DNA of 64,000 nucleotides from Candidatus Omnitrophota bacterium (GCA_029261055.1 JAJDCA010000038.1:9619-73618); one strand, 5' to 3'. Shown: positions 7,309 to 63,989, numbered from the stretch's first letter. Numbers and translations: made by a program. The notes: a model not told the origin generated them from the letters alone.

Positions 7309-7590
7309 TTATTCATATTCACACAGGTAAGCTGTATCTTGTTCAACCTTTGTTTTGAATTTTGATGCCGCAGGAATTTCAAAAGATGCGCCCACACCAA
7401 AATCTTCCCATTCATCATATTCAGCGAAATACACCGTTAAGGCTCCGGAAACCACCGTGATAACTTCTTTTGTTGTTGTATCAAATTCATACTCGCCCGG
7501 TTCCATAACCCCGATGGTCTTTCGATTGTCACCTGAATTAATACCGAAAGATTTCACCTTCCCTTCAAAATACTCCTTTACTTCAACCAT
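7309..7590 (-). CDS. ppnP: Pyrimidine/purine nucleoside phosphorylase PpnP (YaiE, DUF1255)
   Basis: 93 aa. EYFEGKVKS...GVMEPGEYEF...VVSGAL...YLCEY closely parallels E. coli YaiE. Confidence 0.75.
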   Translation of the reverse strand: MVEVKEYFEGKVKSFGINSGDNRKTIGVMEPGEYEFDTTTKEVITVVSGALTVYFAEYDEWEDFGVGASFEIPAASKFKTKVEQDTAYLCEYE

Positions 7591-11470: not shown

Positions 11471-11785
11471 TCAAGTGGTATGCAATTCGTAATGGACTCC
11501 TTCTTTTTTTTGCAAAAAAGCTAAAATTTCAAACAGATTATTGGCAGTAGGATTACCGCTGTCACTAAACATTCTCATGACACTTTTAGATTCTTTATGT
11601 ATAAATTTTCCTAATTTCTCAAAGCCGATCGTTGCATTAATGTAGTCTCGAAGTAACGCTTTTCCCGTTTTTGTATCCCCTGAAATCATACGTTCAATAC
11701 TCTCTCGAAGCAATCCTTTTCGAAATTCAGGATCTCGAAGCGCGCGAGATTGAATTGTTTCTTTAAACCGACGTGTAATAGCCAT
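11471..11785 (-). CDS. Putative addiction-module antidote/XRE-like DNA-binding protein (TIGR02684-like)
   Basis: ALLRDYINATIGFEKLGKFIHKESKSVMRMFSDSGNPTANNLFEILAFL resembles antidote proteins that pair with RelE/ParE-type killers. No cognate toxin ORF was found. Confidence 0.5.
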   Translation of the reverse strand: MAITRRFKETIQSRALRDPEFRKGLLRESIERMISGDTKTGKALLRDYINATIGFEKLGKFIHKESKSVMRMFSDSGNPTANNLFEILAFLQKKEGVHYELHTT

Positions 11786-11876
11786 GCTACCCTCCTAATT
11801 TTTTTTGAATTTTATATTCTACAAGCTTAATCATAAAGTAACATATATGTTACTAATTGACAAGTTTTTATATTTG

Positions 11877-12093
11877 TAAAGGTTTAGCATTCTGTGTTAT
11901 CTGCGAGCTAAAGCATTGGTTTATTTCACGCAGGAACGCTTGTTCGCCCCTGCGGGCTCACATCACTCGACGAAAGCCCTGCGCATTCCATGCTGAACGC
12001 ATGGAAACCGGCTGCTTGGGCTTTCAACGTCCTGCTTAGAAATAAACCAATACTTTTTAACGCTCTTCGACAACTCAGAATGCTAAACCTTTA
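11877..12093. repeat. GC-rich 217-nt multi-stem palindromic element (MITE-like or structured ncRNA)
   Basis: Perfect 18-bp terminal inverted repeats TAAAGGTTTAGCATTCTG / CAGAATGCTAAACCTTTA. Nested internal stems (GGTTTATTTC/GAAATAAACC, GAAAGCCC/GGGCTTTC, CCATGC/GCATGG, GCCC..GGGC). Far higher GC than the flanks. Confidence 0.6.
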
Positions 12094-12302
12094 CGCTATT
12101 GAGCCATAGAATGTCTAAAACAATCCTCAGGGGTTTGCCCTTGTTTAACTCCAGCAATCCCCCGAGGTTTGTTGACGGTTAAAGCCACCATAAATACACC
12201 TCGCTAAACATTTACTTATATTCTTTAACAAATCCGACTATTCTAAATACAAAAAATCCCTCTCGAATTTCAATTTACGGGGAAATCAAACATTCTTGAG
12301 GG

Positions 12303-12320
12303 ATTGATACTAGTATCAAT
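12303..12320. promoter_or_regulatory. Perfect 18-bp palindrome ATTGATACTAGTATCAAT (candidate operator)
   Basis: Read directly. It lies in the 1.25-kb non-coding region between the XRE-like gene and the SDR gene. Confidence 0.35.
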
Positions 12321-12448
12321 TATTTTTCTATTTATGTCAAATTCTTAGAAATTAAATTATTGCATGTGTCTCGGGATTGAGTACTTGAAAAAATTTGTTT
12401 TATTATTTATTGAAAAATAATCGATTGCATACAGTGCCTACTTTTTTC

Positions 12449-12595
12449 TTATTTTTTTTCTTTTTTCATGCCATTTTTAATTTGAAAAACGATAACCTTC
12501 TTGGCCGCTGATGCTTGAGACTCTTCTAAAACACCTTCTTTTTGAAGAAAATCATCAAAATTACTTCCCATATGTTTATTTTTTCTTCTTTTCAA
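12449..12595 (-). pseudogene. Truncated HigA-family antitoxin-like N-terminal fragment (copy 2)
   Basis: ORF (L)KRRKNKHMGSNFDDFLQKEGVLEESQASAAKKVIVFQIKNGMKKEKK. The nucleotide sequence 12475-12595 is about 85% identical to 11265-11390. Confidence 0.4.
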
Positions 12596-13030
12596 CGATT
12601 TCTACACTTTATTAATGCCATAATGTAACAAAAATTACTATGTTCTTGTTACAAACCATGACCTAAAAATAGGAACAATCTCCGAGGTATGCCCAGCTAT
12701 CACCGAATTTACCACATTATACGAAACAAAAGAAGAAACAAACAAAGCAATTACTACGGTAATAATAGAATCTACAAAACGCTTAGGCCAGTCCTTACAA
12801 ATTTCATTACAAATTTTATTAATGCCCCTAGAAACCTTTTTTTTAATTCTTTCAATTTAATACCTCCACAAAAATTGGAAACACAATCTCAAGTAATAAT
12901 ATGTTGACAGCGTAAGAACTAAAGAAAGCAAATGACAAAAAACTATCCTCCTATTCTTTATTTGCTTATCTTCATCCCACTCTTTCTATCAATGCCCCAA
13001 CACACCAATCAAATGACTTTTCTCCTCCAC

Positions 13031-14584
13031 TCACCAATCCACTGGAAAATAGTCTTTGAGGAATTTTCCAGACCAATGTTTGCCGGTTAAAATTCCATCA
13101 AAAAATGGATCGCAGACGCGAGCGGCACCGTCTACTATGTCTAAGGGGGGTTGGAAGTCGTGCATGGTTTGTTTGCGTTCGGCGAGTGTGGCTGGGTCTT
13201 CGTCTGTTACCCATCCTGTATCGACGGCATTCATAAAAATTCCTGACTTTGCCAAATCACTCGCTGAAGTATGCGTTAGCATATTAAGAGCGGCTTTGGC
13301 CATGTTGGTATGGGGATGACGGTCTGTTTTCGTAAAGCGGTGGAACTTGCCTTCCATCGCTGAAACATTAACAATATGCTTTTGACCTGTATTCTCGCGT
13401 TTCATCATATTCGCGAATCGATTACACAAAACAAACGGGGCGATGGCATTGACCAATTGAAGCTCGATCATCTCGGCGGTGGCTATCTCTCCCAAACGTA
13501 ATCGCCAGCTGTTGGTAGCGCGTAAATCGACCTGCTGAAGATCAGAGTCCAACTTACCTTCAGGAAAAACCTGATCAGACTGAATCGCAGCATCATGTAC
13601 GTAAGAAACCTGGCTGAGTTGGGCTGAGGCATTGATACCCACGCCTTTTATTTTTCCACTCCAAGCCGTTGCCAACGCCTGACCAGCCAATTTCGGGGTA
13701 GGCCCCAACACGAGCTGTTCTTTACATTTTTGGAATGATTGCAAAAGCAACTGAGTATTACTGTCGAGCTGATCAAAAGACAATAATTCATTCGTCATCA
13801 AATGCGCATAAAAACCCGGAGGCCGTCGTACAGTCTGCGCCGCATTATTAATAAGGATGTCCAAACGATCATACGTGCTTTCAATATAATTACAAAAAAG
13901 CTCCACACTGGGCGTATGACGAAGGTCCAACCCGTAGACATGCAGACGCTCCTTCCATTGGGTAAAATCCTCTTCTTTAGAATAACGCTGAGCTGCGTCC
14001 ACGGGAAAACGTGTACTAACAATAACACGCGCCCCTGCGCGCAGCATCATCAGCGCCGACTGATAGCCAATTTTAAGACGCGCCCCGGTGATAAAAGCTG
14101 TCTGCCCTTTTAAGGAAGCACTCTGAAACCGTTTGGCATAATTAAACTCGGCACACGTCGGGCACATCGAATCATAAAAAAAATGTAGTTTTGTAAAAAG
14201 TGCCTTACAGACATAACAATTGACGGGTTTGATAAGGTGGGTTTCCTTAGCTTCATTTTCGGAACCGGCATCACCCACCTTTTGAGGTGCAATAAAAACC
14301 GTGGCCTCACGCGCACTGCGAATACCCGTAACCTTACGCGCATTTCTTTGATGTTGATCAATCCGCTTTTTCTTCAGACGTCGACTGTCCCTTTTCCTCT
14401 TGAGCATCTCCTCACGTACAGGCATCGCAAACTTCCCACAAGCCTTCATCAACGCAATCTTTTGCTCCTGAGAAAGATGCCCCATCGTAGCGCTATTGTC
14501 GACAAGGTCATTGAGCGTATCAATAACCGCCTGAATCTCAGTCTCTGTGTATTTTGACTCTGGAATGGGGTGTGAATTAGTCAC
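13031..14584 (-). CDS. Atypical SDR-family oxidoreductase with an N-terminal Cys-rich (CxxC...CxxC) extension
   Basis: Rossmann block [31 protein letters not shown] and NNAAQT. The 517-aa length is unusual for an SDR. Confidence 0.5.
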
Positions 14585-14620
14585 AAATATCTTTCTTCAA
14601 TCATAGATTGCATTAGTGGG

Positions 14621-14914
14621 TTAAGGATGCGGTGTAATCGCAATAATTGTAATTTCTTTTTTATCCGGGCCGTAATACCAAAAAATACGATAAGCCGCTG
14701 GTGTATTTTGTTCAGCATATGCTTCAAAAACCTTTTTCCCAATAAGCTTCGTTAGGCTGGTAAATTCATGTGTTTGTAAACTTGGATGGCGAGGATTTGT
14801 CTTTAAATAGGACAAAGCCCTTTTTACAGCGCTGTATCTTTTCTTAAGGCCTTTATCTTTTTTTAGCGCATCATACTGCTCTTCAGCTTCATTTGTGTAA
14901 TTAAGCGTAAACAT
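14621..14914 (-). CDS. RelE/ParE-family type II toxin
   Basis: 97 aa. The C-terminal RIFWYYGPDKKEITIIAITPHP is typical of RelE/ParE/YafQ-like toxins. It sits immediately downstream of a small antitoxin-like gene. Confidence 0.55.
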   Translation of the reverse strand: MFTLNYTNEAEEQYDALKKDKGLKKRYSAVKRALSYLKTNPRHPSLQTHEFTSLTKLIGKKVFEAYAEQNTPAAYRIFWYYGPDKKEITIIAITPHP

Positions 14915-14919
14915 TAAGT

Positions 14920-15168
14920 CTAATCTTTATCAGGATCAAATGGTTTAATTTTGCCGTTTTCAGCATCTTTCAAGCCCCTAAAAACACTGGCTAAAGCATC
15001 AGGATTTTTATAGAGCCACATTTCCCTCTCAGGAATAGCCTCCATCGGCTCCAACACAATTCTCCCATCTTCTAATTTGGCATCAAACAGTTTGGTTGAA
15101 ATGCCAGTAAGAAGCTTTCCTAATGTTACGCGATTTTGTTTGTCCAATGTAACTAACATATTATTCAC
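14920..15168 (-). CDS. AbrB/MazE/SpoVT-type antitoxin
   Basis: 82 aa. The N-terminal swapped-hairpin-like NRVTLGK...DGRIVLEP pattern. It is 5 nt upstream of the toxin gene. Confidence 0.5.
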   Translation of the reverse strand: MNNMLVTLDKQNRVTLGKLLTGISTKLFDAKLEDGRIVLEPMEAIPEREMWLYKNPDALASVFRGLKDAENGKIKPFDPDKD

Positions 15169-15274
15169 CTCACTTTTTTATTTTAACCACAATATAAGTA
15201 TACCCTATTTAGCACCATATTGTCAAATAGGTGAATCACCTATTTGACTATCTGAATAATAGTAAGCTTGAAAA

Positions 15275-17362
15275 TTATTCAAAACAAAACTTTGTCTTAT
15301 ACTCTTTATCTAGGGTAATACGTGCATCAAAAGGTTTGCCAGCTTTTGAGGTGAAGCCTTTGATTAAATCGGATTTCCCATCTTTAAAAATTTTTCTTGC
15401 CTGGGCGTGGGAGATTTTCTTGCCGGCAATGGTCCACCATAAAACAAATGGGCAGCCTTCTCTGTATTGTGCACAATAATACGCTTTACGGCCTTCTAGA
15501 ATTTGGCCTTTTTTGCATTGTGGGCATACGCCAAGACTATCTTTTTTAGAATAACCTGACTGAGACATCCGACTCGTTTGTATGATCGGCACAATCTTTT
15601 TCGTAAACGCTTCAATCTCCTGCATAAAATCTAAACCTTTTAACTTACCGTCTTGAATGGCTGCTAATTTTTGTTCCCATTGCGCGGTCAACTCAGGGCT
15701 TTTTAAATCGCTTACCACGGTATGAACTAACCGAATGCCTTTTTCCGTTGGAATGAGGCTCTTTCCTTTACGAAAGATATACTCCGATTTAAGCAAACGT
15801 TCAATCACGGATGCGCGCGTTGCCTGTGTACCAAGCCCTTGATCTTTCAGTCGGGCCGCCAAAGAACTATCATCCACTTGCCGTCCAATGTAACGCATAG
15901 CGTTTAATAACGTTCCATCTGTGTATAATTTTGGTGGAGCGGTTTCTTTTTCCTGAACATCCAGCGCGTCGATAGGACAGGTCTCTCCTTTTTTAAACTT
16001 GGCTTCCAATAGGGCCTGCACCTCAGGACGAACTGGATAAGGAGCCTGCGGATCCTTTTGATACACACGCCGCCACCCAACCTCAACGGCACGGGCGCCT
16101 TTGCATTTGAAACATTCTCCGTCAATATCCAAAATAACTTCTGTCACCTCTTCCACAAAATCCGGATGAAAAATGGAAATAAATCTTTTTTGAATCAATA
16201 AATACACCTGGCTTAATTTGTCCGAAAGAATACCTTGCTGCTTTTTCCCTGTTGGAATAATGGCATGATGGTCAGTCAATTTTTTATCGTCGATGTAATT
16301 CTTGCCAAGAACGTGCCCAGAAGACAGATACTGCAAAGATTCCTGCGCCAACGGCTGCAGAGCCTCTGGTGCATTTTTAAGAATAGCCGGTAACTGCGGT
16401 CGCATTTTCTCAGACAGATGCCGGGATTCGGTTCGAGGATACGAAATCAACTTATGTTGTTCGTACAAATTTTGCGCCAAATCCAACGTTTCCTTGGCGG
16501 TGTAACCAAATTTGTCATTACATTCCTTCTGCAAGAGCGTTAAATCATACAATGGCAATGGACCGGTTTTCCGTTTTGATTTTTTAATACCGGTAATGAC
16601 TCCGGGCTTGCCGTCCAATTTTTTCTTTAAGGCTTCTGATCTTTCTTTTGCATCAATTTTGTATCCATCTTTGTCTTCCCACCGAAAATCCACCTGACGT
16701 GTTTGGGCATGCAATTCATAATAATAAAATTTCTGAAACCCCTGAATAAGTTCATAACGATTCACAATAAGCGCCAGCGTCGGCGTTTGAACACGCCCTA
16801 CAGTATACAATTGACCATGCCGCACCGAATAGGCCCGCGTGGCATTCAGCCCCACCAACCAATCCGCAAAAGCCCGACACTGCGCCGACGTCCCTAACGG
16901 ATTAAATGATGCCCCCGGATGCAATGAACCCAAACCGTCACGAATACTTTCATCGGTTAAATCAGAAATCCACAGACGTTTAAACGGTTTTTGACACCCG
17001 CAACGTCGATAAATCCAACGAAAAATTAATTCTCCCTCACGCCCGGCATCCGTCGCATTAATAATTTCATCACAGCCATTAAATAATCGACTGATCGTAT
17101 TAAATTGATCAAGACTTTTAGGATAGGTAGCGAGTTGAAAGGCCTCCGGAATCATGGGCAGCTGGGCAAAACTCCATTTTCCACCCCACCGTTCATTCAT
17201 CACCGACGGTTCAGCAATGCCCACCAAATGACCAAAAGCCCAGGTCACCTGATACCCAGCCCCTTCCAGCCATCCATTACGCTTTTGTGATGCGCCCACC
17301 ACCCGCGCAATATCACGCGCCACACTCGGTTTTTCTGCTAATATTACTTTCATAACATGCAA
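15275..17362 (-). CDS. topB: DNA topoisomerase III
   Basis: Toprim (ILAEKPSVARDIA), the catalytic region, and C-terminal Zn-ribbon Cys pairs. Strong match to the TopB architecture. Confidence 0.85.
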   Translation of the reverse strand: MHVMKVILAEKPSVARDIARVVGASQKRNGWLEGAGYQVTWAFGHLVGIAEPSVMNERWGGKWSFAQLPMIPEAFQLATYPKSLDQFNTISRLFNGCDEIINATDAGREGELIFRWIYRRCGCQKPFKRLWISDLTDESIRDGLGSLHPGASFNPLGTSAQCRAFADWLVGLNATRAYSVRHGQLYTVGRVQTPTLALIVNRYELIQGFQKFYYYELHAQTRQVDFRWEDKDGYKIDAKERSEALKKKLDGKPGVITGIKKSKRKTGPLPLYDLTLLQKECNDKFGYTAKETLDLAQNLYEQHKLISYPRTESRHLSEKMRPQLPAILKNAPEALQPLAQESLQYLSSGHVLGKNYIDDKKLTDHHAIIPTGKKQQGILSDKLSQVYLLIQKRFISIFHPDFVEEVTEVILDIDGECFKCKGARAVEVGWRRVYQKDPQAPYPVRPEVQALLEAKFKKGETCPIDALDVQEKETAPPKLYTDGTLLNAMRYIGRQVDDSSLAARLKDQGLGTQATRASVIERLLKSEYIFRKGKSLIPTEKGIRLVHTVVSDLKSPELTAQWEQKLAAIQDGKLKGLDFMQEIEAFTKKIVPIIQTSRMSQSGYSKKDSLGVCPQCKKGQILEGRKAYYCAQYREGCPFVLWWTIAGKKISHAQARKIFKDGKSDLIKGFTSKAGKPFDARITLDKEYKTKFCFE

Positions 17363-42377: not shown

Positions 42378-42433
42378 GTGCTAAGTATAAACAAAACAAA
42401 TGGCATGTTCAATCCGATTCTTGCCCTTTCCAT

Positions 42434-42460
42434 AAAAAAGGATCCCGTTGGGGACCCTTA
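42434..42460. terminator. Hairpin AAAAAAGGATCCC-GTTG-GGGACCCTTATTT
   Basis: Near-identical copy of the hairpin at 50637..50658. It is directly adjacent to tRNA-fMet fragment F1. Confidence 0.45.
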
Positions 42461-42469
42461 TTTATTGAT

Positions 42470-42511
42470 TGCGGGAAGCGAATTTGAACCGATGACCTTT
42501 AGGTTATGAGG
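42470..42511 (-). pseudogene. Degenerate copy of the tRNA-fMet 3' half (fragment F1), a candidate island att-site remnant
   Basis: Reverse complement CTCATAACCTAAAGGTCATCGGTTCAAATTCGCTTCCCGCAATCA vs the authentic 3' exon CATAACCTGAAGGTCATCGGTTCAAATCCGGTCCCCGCAACCA. There is no 5' half. Confidence 0.65.
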
Positions 42512-42633
42512 ATGTTATATGACTTTTCTGATAGTTGCTTGTTTTTACTAATGTTTACTGCTGGTAGAGTTTACGAAGAATTAATTTGCTGGTGTTTGCC
42601 TGTTATTAGGCTTGTTTTATTACACATACGTTA

Positions 42634-43866
42634 TCACAAACTTATTTCAATACGCACACCAGCAACTAAAGCATCTTTCATTCCAATTACCGCCCCTGGA
42701 TTAATAACATATTGAAGGTCTGGTTGGATTCTTAATTGGTCATTAATTTGTACGTTATATGTCGCCTCAATGGTCGTTTCATAATCATCTCTTCCGCCCG
42801 CATCAACAATATCATCATTGATCATAGCATAAGCTACCGCAATACCTACCTCATCGTCATCTCGACCTGGAATTAAACCTTTATAGTTAAATCCCCCTCC
42901 AACATACAAATTCACTTCATTCACACGTTTATCATTCATGCCAAACTGAATAAATCCACCAAGCCCTTGATCTTCACGCTCTTCATAAATTTGTTTATCA
43001 ACAATTAAATATCCACCAATATTGTTATTACGTTGAATCGGATCACCGCTAAGATTCAAATCAACGACGTCATCAAAATCTCCAGTGTTATTCCATAAAC
43101 CTAATTTAATAAATCCTGGCAACGATTCTTCATGAAAATGATAGGCTGCTTCTGCTGCAATAAACACACCCGATGAACTATCTAAATCTGAACGAGAAAA
43201 ATGCTCACTCACATCAGGATCGCCTGGGTCTCCATCATACACAGCCAATAATAATTCCCATTGCTCGTCTAATAATGCTTTTATTCTAATTCCTGGTGCA
43301 GCCAACGGAAAAACCGAAGGTCTTGCTCCTGCTGAAATATCAGGTTGAACACCAAAGGAACTGTTAATATACAACCCTCCATATTCCGTAACATTAAACT
43401 CTGAGTTATAGTCATGGAGTCCTAACAAAACTGACAACTGTTCATCTAAAAAAGAATGCTGATACCATAACTCGTAAATACGAAATGTTCGTGGAGCCTC
43501 GATATTACTGACAGTCTGTAAGTCTCCTACAATTTCACCCGTTAATTTTTCCCCACCTGAATTATAAAGACTATAAAAAAAGAACTGTCCATTTTCCCAA
43601 AGACCTAACTTCTTTGTATCTATCTCTAAAGTAATATCCAAATTTGTTAAATAAGTATCCTCTCTTTTAATACCACCCTGTGTATTTGCAAAGTATTCCG
43701 CCGTATATACCGCTTCAAAAGAAATACCTTTATCCTCTAATTGTTTGCGTAATTCTTCGGCCCAAACTTGCTTAGCTTCAAAGATACCATGAAATGTAAG
43801 AATTAAAAACAGAATGGATAATAAGTAAAGTAATTTTTTAATGATATATGTCTTTTTAAATTTCAT
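42634..43866 (-). CDS. Outer-membrane porin-like protein (OprB/carbohydrate-porin-like)
   Basis: Signal peptide. Beta-rich, Gly/Tyr-patterned sequence ending in an aromatic-containing C-terminus. Confidence 0.4.
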   Translation of the reverse strand: MKFKKTYIIKKLLYLLSILFLILTFHGIFEAKQVWAEELRKQLEDKGISFEAVYTAEYFANTQGGIKREDTYLTNLDITLEIDTKKLGLWENGQFFFYSLYNSGGEKLTGEIVGDLQTVSNIEAPRTFRIYELWYQHSFLDEQLSVLLGLHDYNSEFNVTEYGGLYINSSFGVQPDISAGARPSVFPLAAPGIRIKALLDEQWELLLAVYDGDPGDPDVSEHFSRSDLDSSSGVFIAAEAAYHFHEESLPGFIKLGLWNNTGDFDDVVDLNLSGDPIQRNNNIGGYLIVDKQIYEEREDQGLGGFIQFGMNDKRVNEVNLYVGGGFNYKGLIPGRDDDEVGIAVAYAMINDDIVDAGGRDDYETTIEATYNVQINDQLRIQPDLQYVINPGAVIGMKDALVAGVRIEISL

Positions 43867-44147
43867 ATGATGAGACAGTGTATCATCATTGAGTTAACCA
43901 TGTCAATATATTTTATTTTAAGATTTACCGTAGATTTGTTACATATTTGTTATCATTGATAAAACAAACCACATACCACAGCAACATATTAGATTTTTAG
44001 CTATTTATTAACAACATGTTGTGTAGTTCCCTTTTGATCCCCTCTCTCTTCAACCTTCATATTATGAGGGCGAGTGCTTATATTTTAAGTGTTGATAATG
44101 AAGCGGTTAGGATACTTGCGAATTTCGATGTGCCAGATTTGTGCTAT

Positions 44148-44660
44148 TTATGCTACCTCATCAAATTCAGAACGAAAGTGAACCACTCCTGAAAAAGAAC
44201 TTAGGTCCAGATCACTTAAAATCATAATCATAAATGCTTCATCAGGGACTTCCCATTTACAACGAACGCCATACATACTTGCGACCTCAAACCCAAATTT
44301 TGGATAATACTCTGAGTGTCCCAATACTACAACAAAGGGACATTTTCTATTTTTGAGTTCTTCTATTCCTTTCTCAATCAATTTCGACCCTATTCCCTTT
44401 TTCTGATATTCAGGTAATACCGCCATAGGAGCAAGCCCCATCCCTTGATCAATACCTTTTTTCGTCTCGACCTTAACTGGTGTAAAAAGAATATGCCCTA
44501 CAATATGACCATCTTCTTCTGCTACGAGAGATATTATATCCTTACAACTATTTCTCAATTTATCTACAAGGTCAGCTTCAATGGGTTGCTCAAATGCGGC
44601 AAGATTGACTTGTCGAATTGAAATTATATCCTTTAAGTTTTCAGTGCGTACTTTTACCAT
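44148..44660 (-). CDS. GNAT-family N-acetyltransferase
   Basis: Acetyl-CoA-binding motif QKKGIGSKLIEKGIEEL. Confidence 0.7.
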   Translation of the reverse strand: MVKVRTENLKDIISIRQVNLAAFEQPIEADLVDKLRNSCKDIISLVAEEDGHIVGHILFTPVKVETKKGIDQGMGLAPMAVLPEYQKKGIGSKLIEKGIEELKNRKCPFVVVLGHSEYYPKFGFEVASMYGVRCKWEVPDEAFMIMILSDLDLSSFSGVVHFRSEFDEVA

Positions 44661-44710
44661 ATGATAGTAATACCAGGACCAGCTCCCGCGATCTTTTGTA
44701 TTGCTGTTCT

Positions 44711-45211
44711 TTATTCTGAATTAGAGCTTTGCGCCCTATCATTCATATCCTGATACAACCAAACCATGCGATCTAAAAACCAAGTCTTACCCATCATCGT
44801 AATCACTGTTCCAAATACCGTTAACCATACATGAAGAGCTATAAGACCATAAATTGCACAAATAAAACCAATAGAGGTAATCACCTTTATTACATTTAAT
44901 GCGCGTAAATGATGCTTAGGTATTTCAGTCTTAGATTGATTAAGAAATATTCTCTCGCCAAGCACGGCTTTTGAGGCCCAGTTATTAATAGAATCTGGTT
45001 TTTTAAATATACGCGGATTAAACCAAGTCCAAAAACATACCATGACGATAGGAATTAAACACATCCATCCTATCCAAACTCTTGACCAAACAGCAAGACA
45101 TAATAATGGCAAACAAGAATATCTCGTCCAGACACTCCATGGATTAACGTGTCTTTCCCAAACATCATCCGACATTTTAAATATTTTTTCTGCAGTTTTT
45201 TCTATATTCAT
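44711..45211 (-). CDS. Hypothetical membrane protein
   Basis: Three or four TM helices. Confidence 0.4.
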   Translation of the reverse strand: MNIEKTAEKIFKMSDDVWERHVNPWSVWTRYSCLPLLCLAVWSRVWIGWMCLIPIVMVCFWTWFNPRIFKKPDSINNWASKAVLGERIFLNQSKTEIPKHHLRALNVIKVITSIGFICAIYGLIALHVWLTVFGTVITMMGKTWFLDRMVWLYQDMNDRAQSSNSE

Positions 45212-45474
45212 TATTGCTCCTCAACTCGTGCTTTAAGTGCTTGATTCATCAACTCAAAACCATTCTTTGTTTTATCTTCCATACTTCCCCATAATAATAG
45301 GGGCCAGCTGTTAATGCTCAGTAATTAGGTAACTCTTTTGGTATAATAATAACAGCGTTATTAATTTAAACCACTTAAAAACTACCTCCTAAATAGGGGT
45401 ATAAGGGGCTAATTTTGAAATTGGTAAAAAAGAGCTGATGAAAGCAACTCACCAGCTCCTTTTACACGACACCT

Positions 45475-45930
45475 TTAAGAATTAAATCTTCCTCTAAAAT
45501 GATGCCTTTTATACCTTTGCCCATGCGAATGTTTTTTTATCTCCTCAACTAACTTCTTCCTCTGCTCTTGACTTAAACTACTATGAAAATCAGAAACTAC
45601 GCCAACAACTTGAGGAGCCAGTTCATCCACTTGGCTTTGCTTTCTCTCTATTATATTCAACACTTGCTGTTGATCCAAAGAGTCGGCTTCCAACAAAGAA
45701 ACAAATTCCTCTTTAAGCTGTGAATGGTCCCGATTTGTTTCATAGCGAAGGTTTTCAAGCTCCTTATGTAAAAGCACAAGCTTAGCTTTTTGCTGATCAT
45801 CAAGCTGAAGTCTTTTTGAAACAATCTTGATCAATCGATCATTCTTTGAGGAACGATGATCTCGTCCACAACCAGCAATAAAACCGCCAACGGCTATTAT
45901 TGCTATTAAAACTATCCATTTATTATTCAT
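45475..45930 (-). CDS. Spy/CpxP/ZraP-like periplasmic protein
   Basis: Signal peptide/lipobox. Helical repeats with LxxxQ-like motifs and a His-rich C-terminus. Confidence 0.45.
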   Translation of the reverse strand: MNNKWIVLIAIIAVGGFIAGCGRDHRSSKNDRLIKIVSKRLQLDDQQKAKLVLLHKELENLRYETNRDHSQLKEEFVSLLEADSLDQQQVLNIIERKQSQVDELAPQVVGVVSDFHSSLSQEQRKKLVEEIKKHSHGQRYKRHHFRGRFNS

Positions 45931-45944
45931 GTTATTACCTCCTA

Positions 45945-46556
45945 TTAATTATTAGCTAAAACACATACTGCACAAACTGGTTTCAGATTTTTAATTTCTA
46001 CCTTTATATCCTTAAAGCCCGCCTCTAGAAGTTGGGCTGAAATTTTATTCCCTGCATCAATGGCATCTTGATTGGTTGATCTCGGCTTTCTCGGTTGAAA
46101 TGTTATGGCAATCGTGCCATCGACCTTTAGGATACTTTTCAAGTGCATGAAATATTCCACAGGTTTATCCCAGAACATCCAAACATTAACAGAAAAAATC
46201 TTATGAAAAGTCTCTTTTAGTAATTTTAATTCCTCGATCGATCCATTGATCAGCCTTGCCTTTCCACTTCTTACAAATGATGCATTTCTCCTTGAAGCCT
46301 GTTTATGCATAATTTCAGAGTGATCAATGCCTACAACACGACCTTTATTAAGTTTTTGACACACTTGTTCGATGCTTAATCCAGGACCAAAGCCTATTTC
46401 TAAAACTTTGTCATCTGGTTGTATATCCAATAAATTAACTGTCCAGGCATTACGAATACGATTGGACTGCCGATTGGCCATAATTGTTCCAGCCACTTCA
46501 CCCAAAAAACCACTCGGTCTTTTAAATTGAGCCATGACTCCATTCATCGAGTACAT
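45945..46556 (-). CDS. Class I SAM-dependent methyltransferase
   Basis: Motif I VLEIGFGPGLS. Confidence 0.65.
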   Translation of the reverse strand: MYSMNGVMAQFKRPSGFLGEVAGTIMANRQSNRIRNAWTVNLLDIQPDDKVLEIGFGPGLSIEQVCQKLNKGRVVGIDHSEIMHKQASRRNASFVRSGKARLINGSIEELKLLKETFHKIFSVNVWMFWDKPVEYFMHLKSILKVDGTIAITFQPRKPRSTNQDAIDAGNKISAQLLEAGFKDIKVEIKNLKPVCAVCVLANN

Positions 46557-46557
46557 T

Positions 46558-47043
46558 TTATCCCTCCTTTTTGATTACTTGACTCCATTGCTCACTCTCA
46601 AAAGCTTCTCTTATACTTTTTAAAGCTTCAACCGTGATCACCAAATCCTTCTTTGTTACTGATATCCCAAATTTTTTAAGTATTTTTTCTTCCTTGGCAG
46701 ATAGAGAATAATAGAGTTTTTTTCCTTTTTCTGTCATGTTAACCAACTTTGATCTTTTATGAGCCGGATTAGGAATCAATTCAACAATATCCTTTTTTAG
46801 CAGTTCATTAATGATCACTTGAATATGCTGCCTTGATACCGGCCTCATTCTGGCCAACTCTGGGACAGTTAAGGATCCTTTTTTTTCTAAACTTCTTAAA
46901 ACTCCCCTTTGTCCTGCTTTTATCTTTTCCCTTCCATGAATATCCTCCACAACAGCCGCCAATCGATGAAACAGTTTTACGTTTTCAACGAAAAGCGATT
47001 GAAACAATTCGATAGATTGTTCTGTTATTTTTGTTTTTTTCAA
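46558..47043 (-). CDS. MarR-family transcriptional regulator
   Basis: Winged HTH: LTVPELARMRPVSRQHIQVIINELLKKDIV. Confidence 0.7.
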   Translation of the reverse strand: MKKTKITEQSIELFQSLFVENVKLFHRLAAVVEDIHGREKIKAGQRGVLRSLEKKGSLTVPELARMRPVSRQHIQVIINELLKKDIVELIPNPAHKRSKLVNMTEKGKKLYYSLSAKEEKILKKFGISVTKKDLVITVEALKSIREAFESEQWSQVIKKEG

Positions 47044-47395
47044 ATCCCACTCTCCTTTCTGTTGTTTTGTTCCTCCTTTAACTTACTCTCAATATACCAT
47101 ATGACAATATACTTGTCAAGTAGACAACCATATTGTCATTAGTAATGTGAAAACATGTTATTTTAGAAGAATTCTAAATACTTCTTTTCTAGGGAAAATC
47201 GAGGGTAACTCGAAGAAGCTTTTAAAGGTCAACCGTCCTTCAGGCGATAAAGGCAAAGTGCTGTGCTAAAATTTTCAAGCTGGGGATCTTCCGTTCAAGA
47301 GAGTATTGACAATACAATCATTAAATAGTATATTTAGTTAATATAAAGTAATCTAAGTTAGTTTAAATGCATATAAAGACAATAATGGAGGATAT

Positions 47396-48154
47396 ATGGC
47401 AGAAGAAATTTTTACGACTCAAGAATTAGCTGAATATATGAAGGTTAATGAGAAAACAGTTATCAAACTAGCTCAAGCGGGGGATCTTCCAGGGTTTAAG
47501 GTTGGGAATCAATGGAGGTTTAGCTGGACTATGATTGATCGATATATGAATGGACACGTGTTTGATTCCTCTGATGAAAATATGGATATCATTCTTAAAA
47601 CTAAAGATCATATTATTCCTTTTTCGCGTTTGACGGATGAAACCATTATTAATTTGGATTTACGTGCAGATAGTAAGAGAAAAGTCATTTCTGAATTAGC
47701 ACGCATGTCACATACTGCAAGGTTGACACCTTCTTACGAAGGTCTTTATATTGCACTAGAGGAGCGGGAAAAATTGTTAAGTACGGCTGTTGGCCAAGGA
47801 GTAGCATTGCCACATCCACGTTTTCCTGATCAGATGACATTCAAAGAACCACATATTGTTATTGCCCGTTCAAAAATAGGGGTAGAGTATGATGCTCCAG
47901 ACAATAAAAAAGTTCATCTATTTTTTATGCCCTGTTCACAATCTCAATTTGTTCATTTGCGTTTGTTAGCAAAGATTTCTAAGCTTCTTCACATTCCTAA
48001 TGTTATCGATCGTTTTATGCAAGTAACAAGTGCGAAAGAAATTATTCAAATATTAATGGCGCTTGAACAGGAACATTTATTACCTACAGATGATACGAAT
48101 CATGTTCAAAAAGTGATTGATGAACAAAACGAAGTGCAGGAGAGGCAAAAGTGA
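47396..48154 (+). CDS. Excisionase/MerR-type HTH fused to a PTS EIIA(Ntr/Fru)-type domain
   Basis: N-terminal TQELAEYMKVNEKTVIKLAQAGDLPGFKVGNQWRF (HTH_17). C-terminal GQGVALPHPRF..HIVIARSKIGVEYDAPDNKKVHLFFM carries the conserved EIIA-2 histidine. Confidence 0.6.
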   Translation: MAEEIFTTQELAEYMKVNEKTVIKLAQAGDLPGFKVGNQWRFSWTMIDRYMNGHVFDSSDENMDIILKTKDHIIPFSRLTDETIINLDLRADSKRKVISELARMSHTARLTPSYEGLYIALEEREKLLSTAVGQGVALPHPRFPDQMTFKEPHIVIARSKIGVEYDAPDNKKVHLFFMPCSQSQFVHLRLLAKISKLLHIPNVIDRFMQVTSAKEIIQILMALEQEHLLPTDDTNHVQKVIDEQNEVQERQK

Positions 48155-48185
48155 AAGTATTTAGAAATTTCTTTCTCTCTCTTCC

Positions 48186-49289
48186 TCATAAAACTGCAGC
48201 ATTGTGATTTTGATAATCAGCATATCCTTGTGCCTCATGCGAATACCAATAGGTCATATCGTCAAAAGGCGTTAGTGGAGTATTGTTCTGAAAACGTTCA
48301 GGTAAATCAGGATTTGTAATGAAAGGTCGCCCAAAAGCAATCATGTCGGCATCCTTTGATTCAATTCTTTCTTGGGCCAACTCACGCGTATAGCCACAAT
48401 TTCCAATTATAGCACCTTTAAAAAGTGGCCTAAAATCCGCCAGCGTCATGGGTTCTCCCTTTTCATGAAATCCAAATGCCAGACCATCCATGATATGCAT
48501 ATACCCAAGATTGAATTTATTAAACTCTTGTGCCGTATAAAGGAAGGTGTCCCTATAGTCTTCACTGCCCATATCATTAAAAGCCCCATTGGGTGAAATG
48601 CGTACTCCTACGGAATCAGGATCCCACACCTCTAACACAGCTTCAATGACCTCCTTAAAAAAACGAAAACGATTTTCAATGCTCCCCCCATATTCATCCT
48701 CGCGAATATTGGTTTTAGATTCAAGAAATTGATTAATCAAATACCCGTTTGCACCATGAATTTCAACGCCCGCAAAACCAGCTTCTTTAGCATTCTTAGC
48801 CGCTAGTCGATAATCATTTACCGTCTGCTTAATTTCATCAATCGTTAAAGGACGTGGCACTTCGTAATCTTTTTCCCCGAGCGGTGTATGAATCTGATCA
48901 CCGTTTTCAATTTTAATGGCCGATGCCGAAACAGGAAGCTCCCCGTTATGAAAATCACTATGTGAAGCTCTGCCGCAATGCCATAATTGCAAAAACATCG
49001 GTGTCTTTGCCTCAGCCATTTTTGAAGTCACGCTCTTCCAGCCCTCAACCATTTTCGATGTATAAATTCCCGGCGAGTGATTCCACCCATTACCCTGTGC
49101 CGAAACTACCGTCGCTTCAGTAATAATTAAACCCGCCCCTGCACGCTGATAATAATACTCTGCCATCAAGCTGTTCGGTATCCGTTCCTCACCAGCCCTT
49201 CCACGTGTCATAGGGGCTAAAACGATTCGATTTTTAATTTTAAATTTTCCTAATTGATATGAATCAAACATAACGCTCATTGTATGCAC
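48186..49289 (-). CDS. Old Yellow Enzyme-family NADH:flavin oxidoreductase (alkene/N-ethylmaleimide reductase-like)
   Basis: RIVLAPMTRGRA, HCGRASH, GFAGVEIHGANGYLINQFL. Confidence 0.8.
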   Translation of the reverse strand: MHTMSVMFDSYQLGKFKIKNRIVLAPMTRGRAGEERIPNSLMAEYYYQRAGAGLIITEATVVSAQGNGWNHSPGIYTSKMVEGWKSVTSKMAEAKTPMFLQLWHCGRASHSDFHNGELPVSASAIKIENGDQIHTPLGEKDYEVPRPLTIDEIKQTVNDYRLAAKNAKEAGFAGVEIHGANGYLINQFLESKTNIREDEYGGSIENRFRFFKEVIEAVLEVWDPDSVGVRISPNGAFNDMGSEDYRDTFLYTAQEFNKFNLGYMHIMDGLAFGFHEKGEPMTLADFRPLFKGAIIGNCGYTRELAQERIESKDADMIAFGRPFITNPDLPERFQNNTPLTPFDDMTYWYSHEAQGYADYQNHNAAVL

Positions 49290-49480
49290 TCTCCTTTTTA
49301 TACTGCTTGTCGTTTTGTGTGATAATAGGGGTTAGCTTACACTGACCCCGATTTTCGTTTTTTGGGCAACATCTGCCCGATTTGTTCTGCAAATTTTTTT
49401 GGGGAAATAAATGAGTTTATCTCCAATTCCTTCTTCCCCTTATAGTAGCCTCTTCTGATTTATTCCCAAGGCCTAGATTG

Positions 49481-50023
49481 CTAGACTATATTAATCTTAG
49501 ATGATTTTGCTACACCCTCTAAATTCTTATAAATATAATACTGACCAATTATCATACACACTTTATATTCCAAGCTTGATTTATTCCACTCATATACGGA
49601 TTTACTTGTTTCTGGATCAAAAGAAACTCTTTTCGGAATTGGGACAAATATTCTAGTTTCATCACAAAAAATAAAATGAAGCTGTTTAACTGTTACATTT
49701 CCTATCTTAAGGAATACCAGTTGAGAATAAGCCTTTTTATTTGGATAAACATTTGTCCAATCTTCTGAAAAATCTTTCCATCCTTCTGCTAAATGAATTT
49801 GAAAAGTATTATCATCTTCACAAATCCAGATTTCTCTATTTTCAATATGTTCTTTCTTCCACTTTGATTTTTCAACATAACGTTTAAAAGCTCTAAGATC
49901 ATTCTTTTTCTGGCTAATATTAAGGCCAGGAAGCCAACCTAAAAAAATTCCTTCCACTTCGTATCTCTCTTTAATCCAGTTAATTATTTTTTTCATAAAG
50001 CATACTTTTATTTTGTTAGACAT
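49481..50023 (-). CDS. Hypothetical protein
   Basis: 180-aa ORF with no motifs. Confidence 0.4.
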   Translation of the reverse strand: MSNKIKVCFMKKIINWIKERYEVEGIFLGWLPGLNISQKKNDLRAFKRYVEKSKWKKEHIENREIWICEDDNTFQIHLAEGWKDFSEDWTNVYPNKKAYSQLVFLKIGNVTVKQLHFIFCDETRIFVPIPKRVSFDPETSKSVYEWNKSSLEYKVCMIIGQYYIYKNLEGVAKSSKINIV

Positions 50024-50106
50024 ATATTATCACCAAAGATTTTACCACAAATAAGAAAAGCCAGCCATCGTTATAAAACGTTGATTGGGTTTAACTTATA
50101 TTGATT

Positions 50107-50143
50107 TCGGGGAGAAAATTTGAACCGATGACCTTCATGAGGC
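50107..50143 (-). pseudogene. Degenerate copy of the tRNA-fMet 3' end (fragment F2)
   Basis: Reverse complement GCCTCATGAAGGTCATCGGTTCAAATTTTCTCCCCGAAATCA. It shares the TTCAAATT/AATCA variants with F1. The stop codon of ORF 50135..50581 lies inside it. Confidence 0.6.
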
Positions 50144-50581
50144 TAAAACAAACTCCTCTAATAATCCCCACCGCTCTCGGTATGCGGAAGACTTTGGTTG
50201 TCTTTGCCTCTTGACACTCTCAACTATCGCAATGCTACTGGCATAACTATTGAAAATATCCACCGGCATAATATAAAAAACCTTTATTTCGTGAATATAC
50301 AAAATTGCAAAATCAAAATCTTTACTACTATATCGAGAACGTTGCATTACTCTTCTATTTGTCCTTGTCCTTCTATTGTCCACAAGATACATCGACTTTA
50401 ATTGGTTGTACCAGGCTGCTTTTACTTGTATGCGAATAAACGTGTTCCTGACTTCCACAACTAAATCATAAGGCAAACGATCTCCTAGTGGCTTCAGGAC
50501 ATTATACCCTCGGCTTAATAATTCTGTACTAACAGCTGATTCGGCAATATCGGCTTTAAGCTTTGTATCCATTTTTTTCAA
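50135..50581 (-). CDS. PD-(D/E)XK-fold nuclease-like protein
   Basis: ESAVSTELLSRGYNVLKP..PYDLVVEV...IRIQVK gives the D...E.K catalytic pattern. It is located between tRNA-fMet and fragment F2. Confidence 0.45.
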   Translation of the reverse strand: MKKMDTKLKADIAESAVSTELLSRGYNVLKPLGDRLPYDLVVEVRNTFIRIQVKAAWYNQLKSMYLVDNRRTRTNRRVMQRSRYSSKDFDFAILYIHEIKVFYIMPVDIFNSYASSIAIVESVKRQRQPKSSAYRERWGLLEEFVLAS

Positions 50582-50688
50582 GAATTAAATAATGTAAGTT
50601 GTTGATCTACAAGATGTTATTTTCTGAGAATAAAAAAGGATCCCGTTGTGGGGATCCTTAAATGAAAACTGATACTCTTAGGAGTTCC

Positions 50689-50733
50689 GAAAGTGCACGA
50701 GTTGCTTTAAAGCATAGCAACTCGTGCACTTTC
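50689..50733. other. Perfect 18-bp-stem hairpin GAAAGTGCACGAGTTGCT-(9 nt)-AGCAACTCGTGCACTTTC
   Basis: Read directly. It is flanked by two further terminator hairpins (50637..50658 and 50737..50775), all downstream of the tRNA-fMet gene. Confidence 0.6.
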
Positions 50734-50736
50734 CAT

Positions 50737-50775
50737 AAAAAAGACTCAAGCCATTACTGGCTTGAGTCTTTTTTA
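50737..50775. terminator. Bidirectional rho-independent terminator immediately 3' of tRNA-fMet
   Basis: AAAAAAGACTCAAGCC-ATTACT-GGCTTGAGTCTTTTTT, with an 11-bp stem, an A-run and a T-run. Confidence 0.7.
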
Positions 50776-50776
50776 T

Positions 50777-51080
50777 TGGTTGCGGGGACCGGATTTGAAC
50801 CGATGACCTTCAGGTTATGCATACCAACTATGGCTTTCGCCACTAGGCGACAAATTAAAAATTTGTCGCTTATTTGTGGTCTGGACTATCCCTTTACCCT
50901 TTCGGGTATCCGCCTACTAGTCTCTACACCTTCTCCGACAAACTTTTTCAAGTTTGTCTTCGTTTGGCTCGGGATTACCATGTTAAAGGCTTCCCCGAAT
51001 TTGACGGATGTTAACCAGATTGTTTCCAACCTGGGGGCCCACTTTGAGCCTGACGAGCTACCTGACTGCTCCACCCCGCG
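50777..51080 (-). tRNA. Initiator tRNA-fMet(CAU) gene interrupted by a group I intron. Exons lie at 51047..51080 and 50777..50819.
   Basis: The joined exons give CGCGGGGTGGAGCAGTCAGGTAGCTCGTCAGGCT|CATAACCTGAAGGTCATCGGTTCAAATCCGGTCCCCGCAACCA. This is 77 nt and near-identical to E. coli tRNA-fMet, including C1:A72 and three G-C pairs in the anticodon stem. The 227 nt between them separate the anticodon-loop halves. Confidence 0.85.
50820..51046 (-). ncRNA. Group I self-splicing intron (227 nt) in the tRNA-fMet anticodon loop, between U33 and C34
   Basis: The 5' exon ends in U. The intron ends in G (..GGTATG|CATAA). A GGCC guide-like sequence near the intron 5' end can pair with the exon GGCU to form P1. 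There are R-like (GTAGAGACTAGTAGG) and S-like (AAAGGGATAGTCCAGACC) core elements. No ORF lies inside. Confidence 0.75.
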
Positions 51081-63122: not shown

Positions 63123-63989
63123 TTATGCCCTTGGATGTGCTTTATCATAAACTTTCTTTAAGCGATCTGTTGTCACATGCGTGTAAATCTGTGTCGTCGA
63201 AAGATTCACATGCCCCAACAGTTCTTGAACACTACGTAAATCGGCGCCCCGATTTAATAAATGCGTCGCAAACGAATGACGAACGACATGCGGTGAAATT
63301 TTTTTATTAAGACTTGCTGCTAAAATATGTTTATTCACAATATTACGAATACTCCGATCAGACAAGCGTTGTCCACTTTTATTTAAAAATAAAACCTCTG
63401 ATCTTTCTTTACGACGTGTTAAATAATCTCTTACCGCCTTCACAGCTGGCTCCCCTATCGGAACTAGCCGCTCCTTTTTTCCTTTTCCGGCAACCTTAGC
63501 AAGATTACTAATTAAATCGACATGATTCACGTCCAAGCCAACGAGCTCACTGACACGAATACCAGCACTATAAAGTATTTCCAAAATTGCTTTATCCCGT
63601 TTATCCATAATTTTTTCTGAAGAAGGGGCATCAATAAACTGAATCATTTCTTTTTCTGTAAGAAATTTTGGCAAAGGCTTATCTAATTTAGGAGATAATA
63701 ATAAAATAGCTGGGTTATTTTGAATTAAACTCTCCCGATGTAAGAATCTAAAAAAACTTCGTAATGAAGAAAGTTTCCTGGCAAGAGTCCGTGGCTTGTG
63801 CTGTTTTGTTCTCAAATGTGCAAGATAGCGTCTTAAAACCAAATAATCGACTCGGTCAAGAGACATTTGTGTTTCCCCAATAAATTGGAGAAAATCTTCT
63901 AAATCAAGTTTGTAATTAATAATGGTATGTTTTGAGTAATTTTTCTCAACATCTAAATAAGCAATAAATTTATCAAGATACCGATTCAT
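63123..63989 (-). CDS. xerC: Tyrosine site-specific recombinase XerC/XerD family
   Basis: The C-terminal catalytic R..HxxR..Y context (HVVRHSFATHLLNRGADLRSVQELLGHVNLSTTQIYTHV). The N-terminal core-binding domain is present. Confidence 0.75.
   Translation of the reverse strand: MNRYLDKFIAYLDVEKNYSKHTIINYKLDLEDFLQFIGETQMSLDRVDYLVLRRYLAHLRTKQHKPRTLARKLSSLRSFFRFLHRESLIQNNPAILLLSPKLDKPLPKFLTEKEMIQFIDAPSSEKIMDKRDKAILEILYSAGIRVSELVGLDVNHVDLISNLAKVAGKGKKERLVPIGEPAVKAVRDYLTRRKERSEVLFLNKSGQRLSDRSIRNIVNKHILAASLNKKISPHVVRHSFATHLLNRGADLRSVQELLGHVNLSTTQIYTHVTTDRLKKVYDKAHPRA

Follow-up and report, generated by a model that had tools for sequence, protein, structure and literature searches.

An intron-split initiator tRNA gene, a free-standing homing endonuclease and two half-tRNA copies in a Candidatus Omnitrophota genome

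In a 64,000-nucleotide stretch of DNA from a Candidatus Omnitrophota bacterium (GCA_029261055.1, JAJDCA010000038.1:9619-73618; hereafter, the window), the gene for the initiator transfer RNA (tRNA-fMet) is interrupted in its anticodon loop by a group I intron that holds no open reading frame (ORF), and it is followed by a free-standing gene for a homing endonuclease of the I-Ssp6803I family whose end is fused to a 3'-half copy of the tRNA that lacks the intron (F2). A second such copy (F1) lies beyond 7.6 kb of accessory genes (Table 1). The intron sits in the anticodon loop, the characterized homologue of the endonuclease cuts in the anticodon loop and both fragments start there, so that all three concern the same few nucleotides. 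Reading from sequence, we think it highly probable that a selfish module of intron and homing endonuclease occupies 50102-51080, at the initiator tRNA gene, and we give about an even chance to the 7.6 kb (42466-50143) being a site-specific insertion into the distal half-tRNA of that module; the two layers taken together make up the explanation that we favor, with moderate confidence. The sequence-only reading of this DNA had seen in the tRNA half-copies the attachment (att) footprint of two integrase-mediated insertions, of which the inner one, of 0.64 kb, gives way to an endonuclease cassette, while the outer one, of 7.6 kb, stands as plausible and unproven.

Results

A group I intron splits the initiator tRNA gene

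The tRNA-fMet gene spans 50777-51080 on the minus strand. The covariance model RF00028 matches it at 50867-51065 (minus strand) over its full length, model positions 1-253, with 52.5 bits against a gathering score of 50. The intron junctions read GGCT/CAAAG...GTATG/CATAACC, with the 5' exon ending in T (U in the RNA) and a G as the last base of the intron. When the two exons are joined, the 77-nucleotide (nt) product is called by ARAGORN as tRNA-Met(CAT) of the initiator type, with a C1xA72 mismatch, which is a hallmark of bacterial initiator tRNAs. Run on the unspliced 64-kb window, ARAGORN reports no tRNA, because the intron interrupts the gene. Judged by its model score and by the tRNA that its removal restores, the group I intron is genuine, and it is predicted to be self-splicing. 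It is homologous to the introns found in six other loci (L083, L086, L095, L093, L098 and L099). For the intron-less form of the gene, the sequence at the anticodon site is GCTCGTCAGGCTCATAACCTGAAGGTC.

An I-Ssp6803I homologue is encoded outside the intron

The ORF that follows the tRNA gene is 148 amino acids (aa) long, with a protein of 145 aa from the probable ATG, and it matches PF11645 with 149.5 bits against a cut-off of 26.1, its residues 4-140 aligning with profile positions 1-137 of 138. Compared with I-Ssp6803I itself (PDB 2OST), it gives E = 2e-46 with 54% identity and no gaps. The ORF had been described from the sequence as PD-(D/E)XK-like, which is correct as to fold family and too general as to kind, since the protein is a close homologue of I-Ssp6803I. 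Residues D39 and Q52-V53-K54, which we take to be catalytic, are invariant in an alignment of eight endonuclease sequences. Bonocora and Shub in 2001 reportedly found that I-Ssp6803I cleaves beside the anticodon in tRNA-fMet genes without the intron, and by homology the window enzyme should likewise act in the anticodon loop of intron-less alleles. In Synechocystis, the tRNA-fMet gene has a group I intron of 655 nt that encodes I-Ssp6803I (PMC1995217), and the recognition site of the enzyme is a 23-base-pair pseudo-palindrome (PMC3384342). In the window, 195 nt separate the end of the complete tRNA gene from the ORF, which unlike that of I-Ssp6803I is outside the intron. Its stop codon lies within F2, where the frame runs GCC TCA TGA across a 5-nt deletion, so that the earlier placement of this stop inside the fragment is borne out.

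Hundreds of homologues of the endonuclease were found. A scan of metagenome contigs with the same protein gave only four distant loci, too few for a census.

F1 and F2 are intron-less copies that begin at the anticodon loop

The 64 kb contain three copies, and no more, of an 18-nt core from the T-arm region, ATTTGAACCGATGACCTT; they start at 42482, 50118 and 50793 and have one orientation. A count of three was reached in 0 of 100 shuffles, and the core forms the strongest direct-repeat family within 40-52 kb. Aligned with the functional 3' exon, F1 is identical at 38/43 positions and F2 at 32/38, the latter with an additional 5-nt deletion (AACCT) in the anticodon loop and stem. Two 3'-half copies in the orientation of the gene, as proposed from the sequence alone, are therefore present where they had been placed, with ends that we have moved by a few bases (F1 42466-42510, F2 50102-50143). 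In both, (C)CTCAT reads continuously over the intron insertion site, from which it follows, again as proposed, that both start in the anticodon loop and lack the intron.

Upstream of F1 the resemblance to the gene ends: the adjoining 32 nt match the 5' exon at 10/32 positions (manual count), and the step from 88% to ~31% identity comes precisely at the anticodon loop. For this reason we rejected the reading of F1 as a complete gene that has fully decayed. F1 and F2 also have in common three derived states, T61, C64 and T74, that are absent from the functional 3' exon (P ~0.001 by simulation), and this agreement, already remarked on in the sequence-only reading, indicates that they are copies of each other and not independent copies of the gene.

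The flanks of the two fragments differ in kind. That of F1 is paralogous to the flank of the real 3' exon and includes a GGATCC-type terminator; a hairpin of this type has only two copies in the window, one beside F1 and one beside the tRNA gene, in agreement with what had been seen before. That of F2 matches the downstream flank of a distal fragment in another Omnitrophota locus, L085, with 86% identity over 50 nt (E = 1e-5). Two perfect hairpins (stems of 19 and 18 base pairs, window 50662-50765) separate the 3' exon from its GGATCC terminator. Deleting these first two hairpins in silico makes the flank of the gene collinear with that of F1, and the hairpin pair thus resembles an insertion of ~105 nt.

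Table 1. Features of the tRNA-fMet region and of the 7.6-kb segment (window positions unless a locus is named)
Feature	Position	Strand	Remarks
tRNA-fMet 5' exon	51047..51080	-	tRNA positions 1-33, ends ...CAGGCT; located by sequence
Group I intron, ORF-less, 227 nt	50820..51046	-	Rfam RF00028; between U33 and C34 of the anticodon loop
tRNA-fMet 3' exon	50777..50819	-	CATAACC...CCA; located by sequence
Three hairpins between tRNA and endonuclease gene	50636..50776	-	50735-50776, 50689-50733, GGATCC terminator 50636-50659; inverted-repeat and terminator scans
Free-standing homing endonuclease gene, I-Ssp6803I / PDDEXK_5 family	50135..50581	-	PF11645; probable ATG at 50572; TGA inside F2
F2, tRNA-fMet 3' fragment without intron, joined to the endonuclease ORF at its end	50102..50143	-	GCC TCA TGA
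F2 flank, degenerate hairpin	50040..50101	-	homologous to distal-fragment flank in L085
Motif copy a, GGTGATAATATATGTCTAACA	50014..50034	-	67 nt inside the F2 end of the 7.6-kb segment
Cargo of the F2-F1 segment	42639..50013	.	Pfam: 180-aa orphan, OYE reductase, HTH-EIIA, MarR, methyltransferase, Spy/LTXXQ-like, DUF6653, GNAT, OprB porin
Third, weaker motif copy (TGTGATAAC...TGTAACA type)	43937..43957	-	4 mismatches; ~70 nt upstream of oprB start
Motif copy b, TGTGATAACGTATGTGTAATA	42618..42638	-	107 nt inside the F1 end; overlaps oprB stop codon
F1, intron-less tRNA-fMet 3' half	42466..42510	-	CTCAT...ATCA
F1 flank	42380..42465	-	contains a GGATCC-type terminator (42438-42459) and the sequence ...TTTTTTATGGAAAGgGCA; the functional 3' exon has a paralogous flank
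Distal tRNA fragments homologous to F2	L083 6426-6472; L086 10440-10458

Two endonuclease architectures occur among related Omnitrophota

The nearest enolases (76-81% identity) are found in Candidatus Omnitrophota metagenome-assembled genomes, and in these relatives the synteny upstream of the site is kept: PurN, a hypothetical gene, FtsH, enolase, DivIC/FtsB and tRNA-fMet. Three loci (L002, L003 and L065) have an intron-less tRNA-fMet gene at the same position and no endonuclease. Where the endonuclease is present, it takes one of two forms. In the intron-internal architecture (L093, L098 and L099-101), the ORF begins 3 nt past the 5' splice site and extends into the ribozyme core of an intron of ~640 nt. 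In the free-standing architecture, seen in the window and in L082-85, L086-87 and L095-97, an ORF-less intron and a complete tRNA are followed by a terminator and then by the endonuclease gene, and the order that recurs in other Omnitrophota species is eno, ftsB (DivIC), split tRNA-fMet, terminator, endonuclease and an intron-less fragment starting GGCTCAT.

The fragment that directly follows the free-standing endonuclease measures 46 nt in L083 and 19 nt in L086, corresponds to F2 in the window and is missing from L095 (L095-97 have none). In L083 the ORF ends GGC TCA TAA, its stop codon being U36-A37-A38 of the anticodon loop, in the same frame as in the window; the endonuclease thus stops in the anticodon loop in two of the three species that have the fragment. 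Among the 120 best homologues, protein tails ending in GS or AS occur in nine clusters, and many other tails are encoded by the ribozyme (SNGSLSR and VKFGEP, for example), which indicates that both architectures are common. Set against these loci, F2 is by sequence a conserved part of the free-standing endonuclease module, not an integrase scar. Intron and endonuclease are distributed patchily among equally distant relatives (L002 and L003 have neither), a pattern compatible with mobility or with loss.

Two further observations concern individual relatives. In L083, the distal half-tRNA (6438-6472) differs from the functional 3' exon (5880-5914) by a compensatory change of the T-stem pair G52-C62 to A52-T62; A52-T62 is the state of the functional tRNA of L086, and the distal copy would thus derive from a different functional allele. 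In L095, a 90-aa GIY-YIG-like ORF (7596-7868, plus strand; no NCBIfam match) lies between the 3' end of tRNA-fMet and the terminator that precedes the endonuclease, flanked by direct repeats of CCCCGCAACCA at 7421-7431 and 7930-7940; given these repeats, we read it as another small nuclease cassette that uses the tRNA 3' end.

An independent Logan contig, L088 (SRR15505515), reproduces the order 3' exon, endonuclease, F2 and cargo as far as window position 45320, and so confirms it up to the Spy-like gene. Two same-strain Logan contigs break at the intron: L001 ends 4 nt before the 5' splice site (window 51051) and L088 starts 3 nt after the 3' splice site (window 50816). Breaks at both exon-intron borders imply that the assembly graph branches there, and the sample may hold intron-minus or other alleles; this is a hint, not proof.

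A 7.6-kb segment lies between the two fragments

The segment between F2 and F1 carries accessory genes (Table 1). Its sole plus-strand gene, at 47396-48154, encodes an excisionase-type HTH_17 domain fused to an EIIA-2 domain of the phosphotransferase system; the HTH_17 family includes excisionases, and the fusion protein is probably a regulator. Homologues of the 180-aa orphan beside F2 were found next to the S subunit gene of a type I restriction-modification system on short contigs, none of them near a tRNA, and the closest Ada homologues (70% and 67% identity) lie in unrelated, non-syntenic neighborhoods.

Just inside each end of the segment there is a copy of a 21-nt motif. Searched with a query taken from L085, TGTGATAACATATGTGTAACA, which consists of two tandem half-sites, and with at most three mismatches allowed, the 64 kb yields two copies, in the same orientation, against 0.00 expected. 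In the 1.7 Mb of loci that were fetched, its other occurrences are limited to a copy downstream of the L085 distal fragment, a variant downstream of the one in L083 and a weaker third copy in the window. A scan of viral contigs for the motif gave 21 matches, none near a tRNA-fMet fragment, and these were set aside as chance matches. The weaker third copy in the window stands just upstream of a good promoter-like site (43906-43877), and oprB thus has a motif copy on either side.

In the species represented by L082-85, variation begins at the corresponding place: L082 and L083/84/85 have 100% identical endonucleases, and their contigs diverge immediately after the distal fragment. Sequence comparison thus points to the distal-fragment site of that species as a recombination hot spot.

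An integrase element sits at the same tRNA in L002. Here, an element of ~3.8 kb (11692-15500) adjoins the intron-less tRNA-fMet gene and has tandem TTGGCACAAA repeats near both ends. It encodes a tyrosine integrase of 365 aa (14365-15462), 2.7 kb downstream of the tRNA, that the NCBIfam cut-offs do not class as XerC. The stop codon of the integrase is followed, at a distance of about 20 nt, by an anticodon-arm fragment (15476-15496) that resembles the tRNA-fMet of other species and not that of L002 itself; its 12-mer AACCTGAAGGTC occurs elsewhere in 1.87 Mb only in tRNA-fMet sequences. To judge from the L002 locus, integrases do use this tRNA.

A probable homing module and a possible insertion

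In the explanation that we favor, the endonuclease would cut an intron-less tRNA-fMet allele in the anticodon loop. Repair of the break would then use the 5' exon as homology on one side and, on the other, either the proximal 3' exon or the distal half-tRNA: by the first route the intron alone would be transferred, and by the second the intron, the 3' exon and the endonuclease gene would be copied together. The resident chromosome should be immune to its own enzyme, because the intron splits the target and the fragments have no left half-site. The module would in this way resemble collaborative homing, with the duplicated half of the target, we infer, serving as the downstream arm. For the second layer, the 7.6-kb insertion would have duplicated the half-tRNA, leaving F2 as an attL-like and F1 as an attR-like end, with F1 retaining the native terminator; the recombinase would since have been lost, giving a non-autonomous or decayed island comparable to a cis-mobilizable element. 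This second layer is suggested by the derived states of F1 and F2, the motif inside both ends, the divergence among L082-85, the integrase of L002 and the native-type flank of F1.

Several findings weigh against one or the other layer. As to the first, the window's ATG at 50572 is not preceded by a Shine-Dalgarno sequence, whereas L083, L086 and L095 have GGAGG at that place, and expression of the endonuclease in the window may be weakened. Indeed, because F2 is degenerate, the Shine-Dalgarno sequence is absent and ~105 nt of extra hairpins precede the usual terminator, the module in the window may be decaying. The cleavage specificity assigned to the enzyme is extrapolated from its 54% identity to I-Ssp6803I. 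Moreover, the first letters of the fragments, (G)GCTCAT, take in 2-4 nt on the left of the intron site, beyond the point where the break should have its right-hand end according to what Bonocora and Shub reportedly found in 2001; a simple double-strand-break end, which would not include those 2-4 nt, does not account for the junction between endonuclease and fragment.

As to the second layer, the F1 junction is seen in the window's own assembly only. The motif could be a promoter or operator and not a recombinase arm site, given that its third copy lies upstream of oprB. A Pfam scan of every ORF of 148 aa or more between 42.6 and 50.6 kb, 11 in number, gave neither an integrase nor an excisionase, and tblastn with E up to 100 gave no integrase relic and no second endonuclease relic in 42-51 kb; the absence of an integrase from the segment, asserted in the sequence-only reading, is thus upheld. 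With the L002 integrase as query, tblastn found a XerC gene at 63123-63989 (minus strand), the sole tyrosine recombinase in the window; it scores 357 bits as a XerC equivalog against a cut-off of 335 and is a housekeeping enzyme, not an island integrase. The composition of the segment is ordinary, with a tetranucleotide distance of z = 0.81 (rank 13/57) and a G+C fraction of 0.361 against ~0.38, and gives no island-type signal. Finally, no relative with an empty site was found; the nearest relatives have only 78-81% enolase identity and share nothing downstream of the tRNA.

The alternative that survives best, which we nonetheless regard as unlikely, explains both fragments by the endonuclease alone, as by-products of its cutting tRNA-fMet copies without an intron. 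One version makes F1 the 3' half that remained of the original resident gene, or of a second copy, when a cleaved allele underwent illegitimate repair; the 7.6 kb would then be donor flank or ordinary resident DNA and not a mobile island. The model would account well for a common start of both fragments at the anticodon loop, where the homologous enzyme has its target, for the native-type terminator and flank of F1, for a native-like composition without any integrase found and for the lack of a 5'-half remnant upstream of F1, where 10/32 positions match. But it leaves without a cause the rare motif inside both ends and the derived variants common to F1 and F2, the polymorphism among L082-85 starts at the 3' end of the distal fragment and not at its anticodon end, and end-joining without homology would be needed.

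Appreciably less probable is a pair of tandem integrase islands, in which the segments from the tRNA to F2 and from F2 to F1 were both inserted at the 3' half of tRNA-fMet, F1 and F2 being att scars and the integrases lost. Such a history would produce direct repeats of the tRNA 3' half, all oriented alike, and would fit the integrase element at the same tRNA in L002, and a boundary in the anticodon loop is, as Williams reportedly described in 2002, typical of one class of tRNA-targeting integrases. Yet the only gene of the inner segment is a homing endonuclease whose characterized homologue targets exactly the anticodon loop of tRNA-fMet, several species and nine protein clusters have kept the fusion of endonuclease and fragment with its stop in the anticodon loop, and the inner segment has neither an arm motif nor an integrase.

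Very improbable, lastly, is that no mobile element was involved and that F1 and F2 are what decay has left of once complete tandem tRNA-fMet genes or of segmental duplications: several initiator tRNA genes are common in bacteria and the F1 flank is paralogous to the gene flank, but in F1 identity drops to chance precisely at the anticodon loop, a boundary common to F2 and to the fragments from other species. Neutral decay would not leave just the 3' half in place, and F2 is fused to the endonuclease ORF.

Discussion

How homing endonucleases and group I introns came to be partners is a long-standing question. One proposed intermediate is a free-standing endonuclease that targets the site of an ORF-less intron, and the only natural examples known to us are two phage systems. 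The locus and its relatives suggest a bacterial chromosomal example of this intermediate, in an essential initiator tRNA gene, and they extend the I-Ssp6803I family and the tRNA-fMet intron beyond cyanobacteria to Omnitrophota. Two practical points follow the same lines: tRNA finders miss this initiator tRNA, and half-copies of tRNAs are not automatically integrase scars.

A bolder idea, which we put forward tentatively and think more apt to fail than to hold, is that the free-standing form is a stable and widespread third lifestyle of homing endonucleases, in which the half-tRNA would provide a stop codon, a flank, a downstream homology arm by which intron and endonuclease gene home together, and a decoy landing pad for integrative elements that target tRNA-fMet, so that the single functional initiator tRNA is spared. 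If it were true, internal and external forms within one phylum would offer a natural system for watching endonucleases enter or leave group I introns.

Every component of the locus is of a known kind. To our knowledge, the literature that we searched describes neither a free-standing form in which a duplicated half of the target supplies the stop codon nor the coexistence of free-standing and intron-internal forms within Omnitrophota.

The 7.6-kb segment recalls tRNA islands and cis-mobilizable elements, that is, att-flanked elements without an integrase that accrete at specific sites: it lies between repeats of a tRNA 3' half, carries accessory genes and no integrase and has a motif near both ends, as the element of L002 has tandem repeats at its ends. 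Unlike such islands, it has as its apparent target a non-functional decoy half-tRNA behind an endonuclease gene, its composition is native-like and no cognate integrase was identified.

The homing module is close to the I-Ssp6803I system, reportedly described by Bonocora and Shub in 2001 and by Zhao et al. in 2007 (PDB 2OST). As in the intron of Synechocystis PCC 6803, the host gene is the initiator tRNA, the intron lies in the anticodon loop and the endonuclease belongs to PF11645 (54% identity). The canonical form itself is present in three of the related loci (L093, L098 and L099), where the ORF lies within the intron, which measures ~640 nt as compared with 655 nt in Synechocystis (PMC1995217). 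The window departs from that system in that its intron is ORF-less, with the endonuclease placed after the tRNA terminators and fused to a duplicated, intron-less 3' half, and in that the host belongs to the phylum Omnitrophota, whereas the family is described as generally cyanobacterial (PMC3384342).

In its arrangement, the module resembles collaborative homing, for which the phage systems are reportedly due to Zeng et al. in 2009 and to Bonocora and Shub in 2009. The predicted target in the window is a chromosomal bacterial tRNA gene and not a phage protein-coding gene, the enzyme is of the PD-(D/E)XK type, and the endonuclease gene is bracketed by a duplicated 3' half of the target that supplies its stop codon. 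The known cases pair free-standing F-CphI with the cyanophage psbA intron and mobE with the T4 I-TevIII/nrdB intron (PMC3984707). In common with them, the window has an ORF-less intron in the target gene and an adjoining free-standing endonuclease, an arrangement also seen in L082-87 and L095-97, and, by analogy, the intron would protect the resident allele and the pair would be inherited together.

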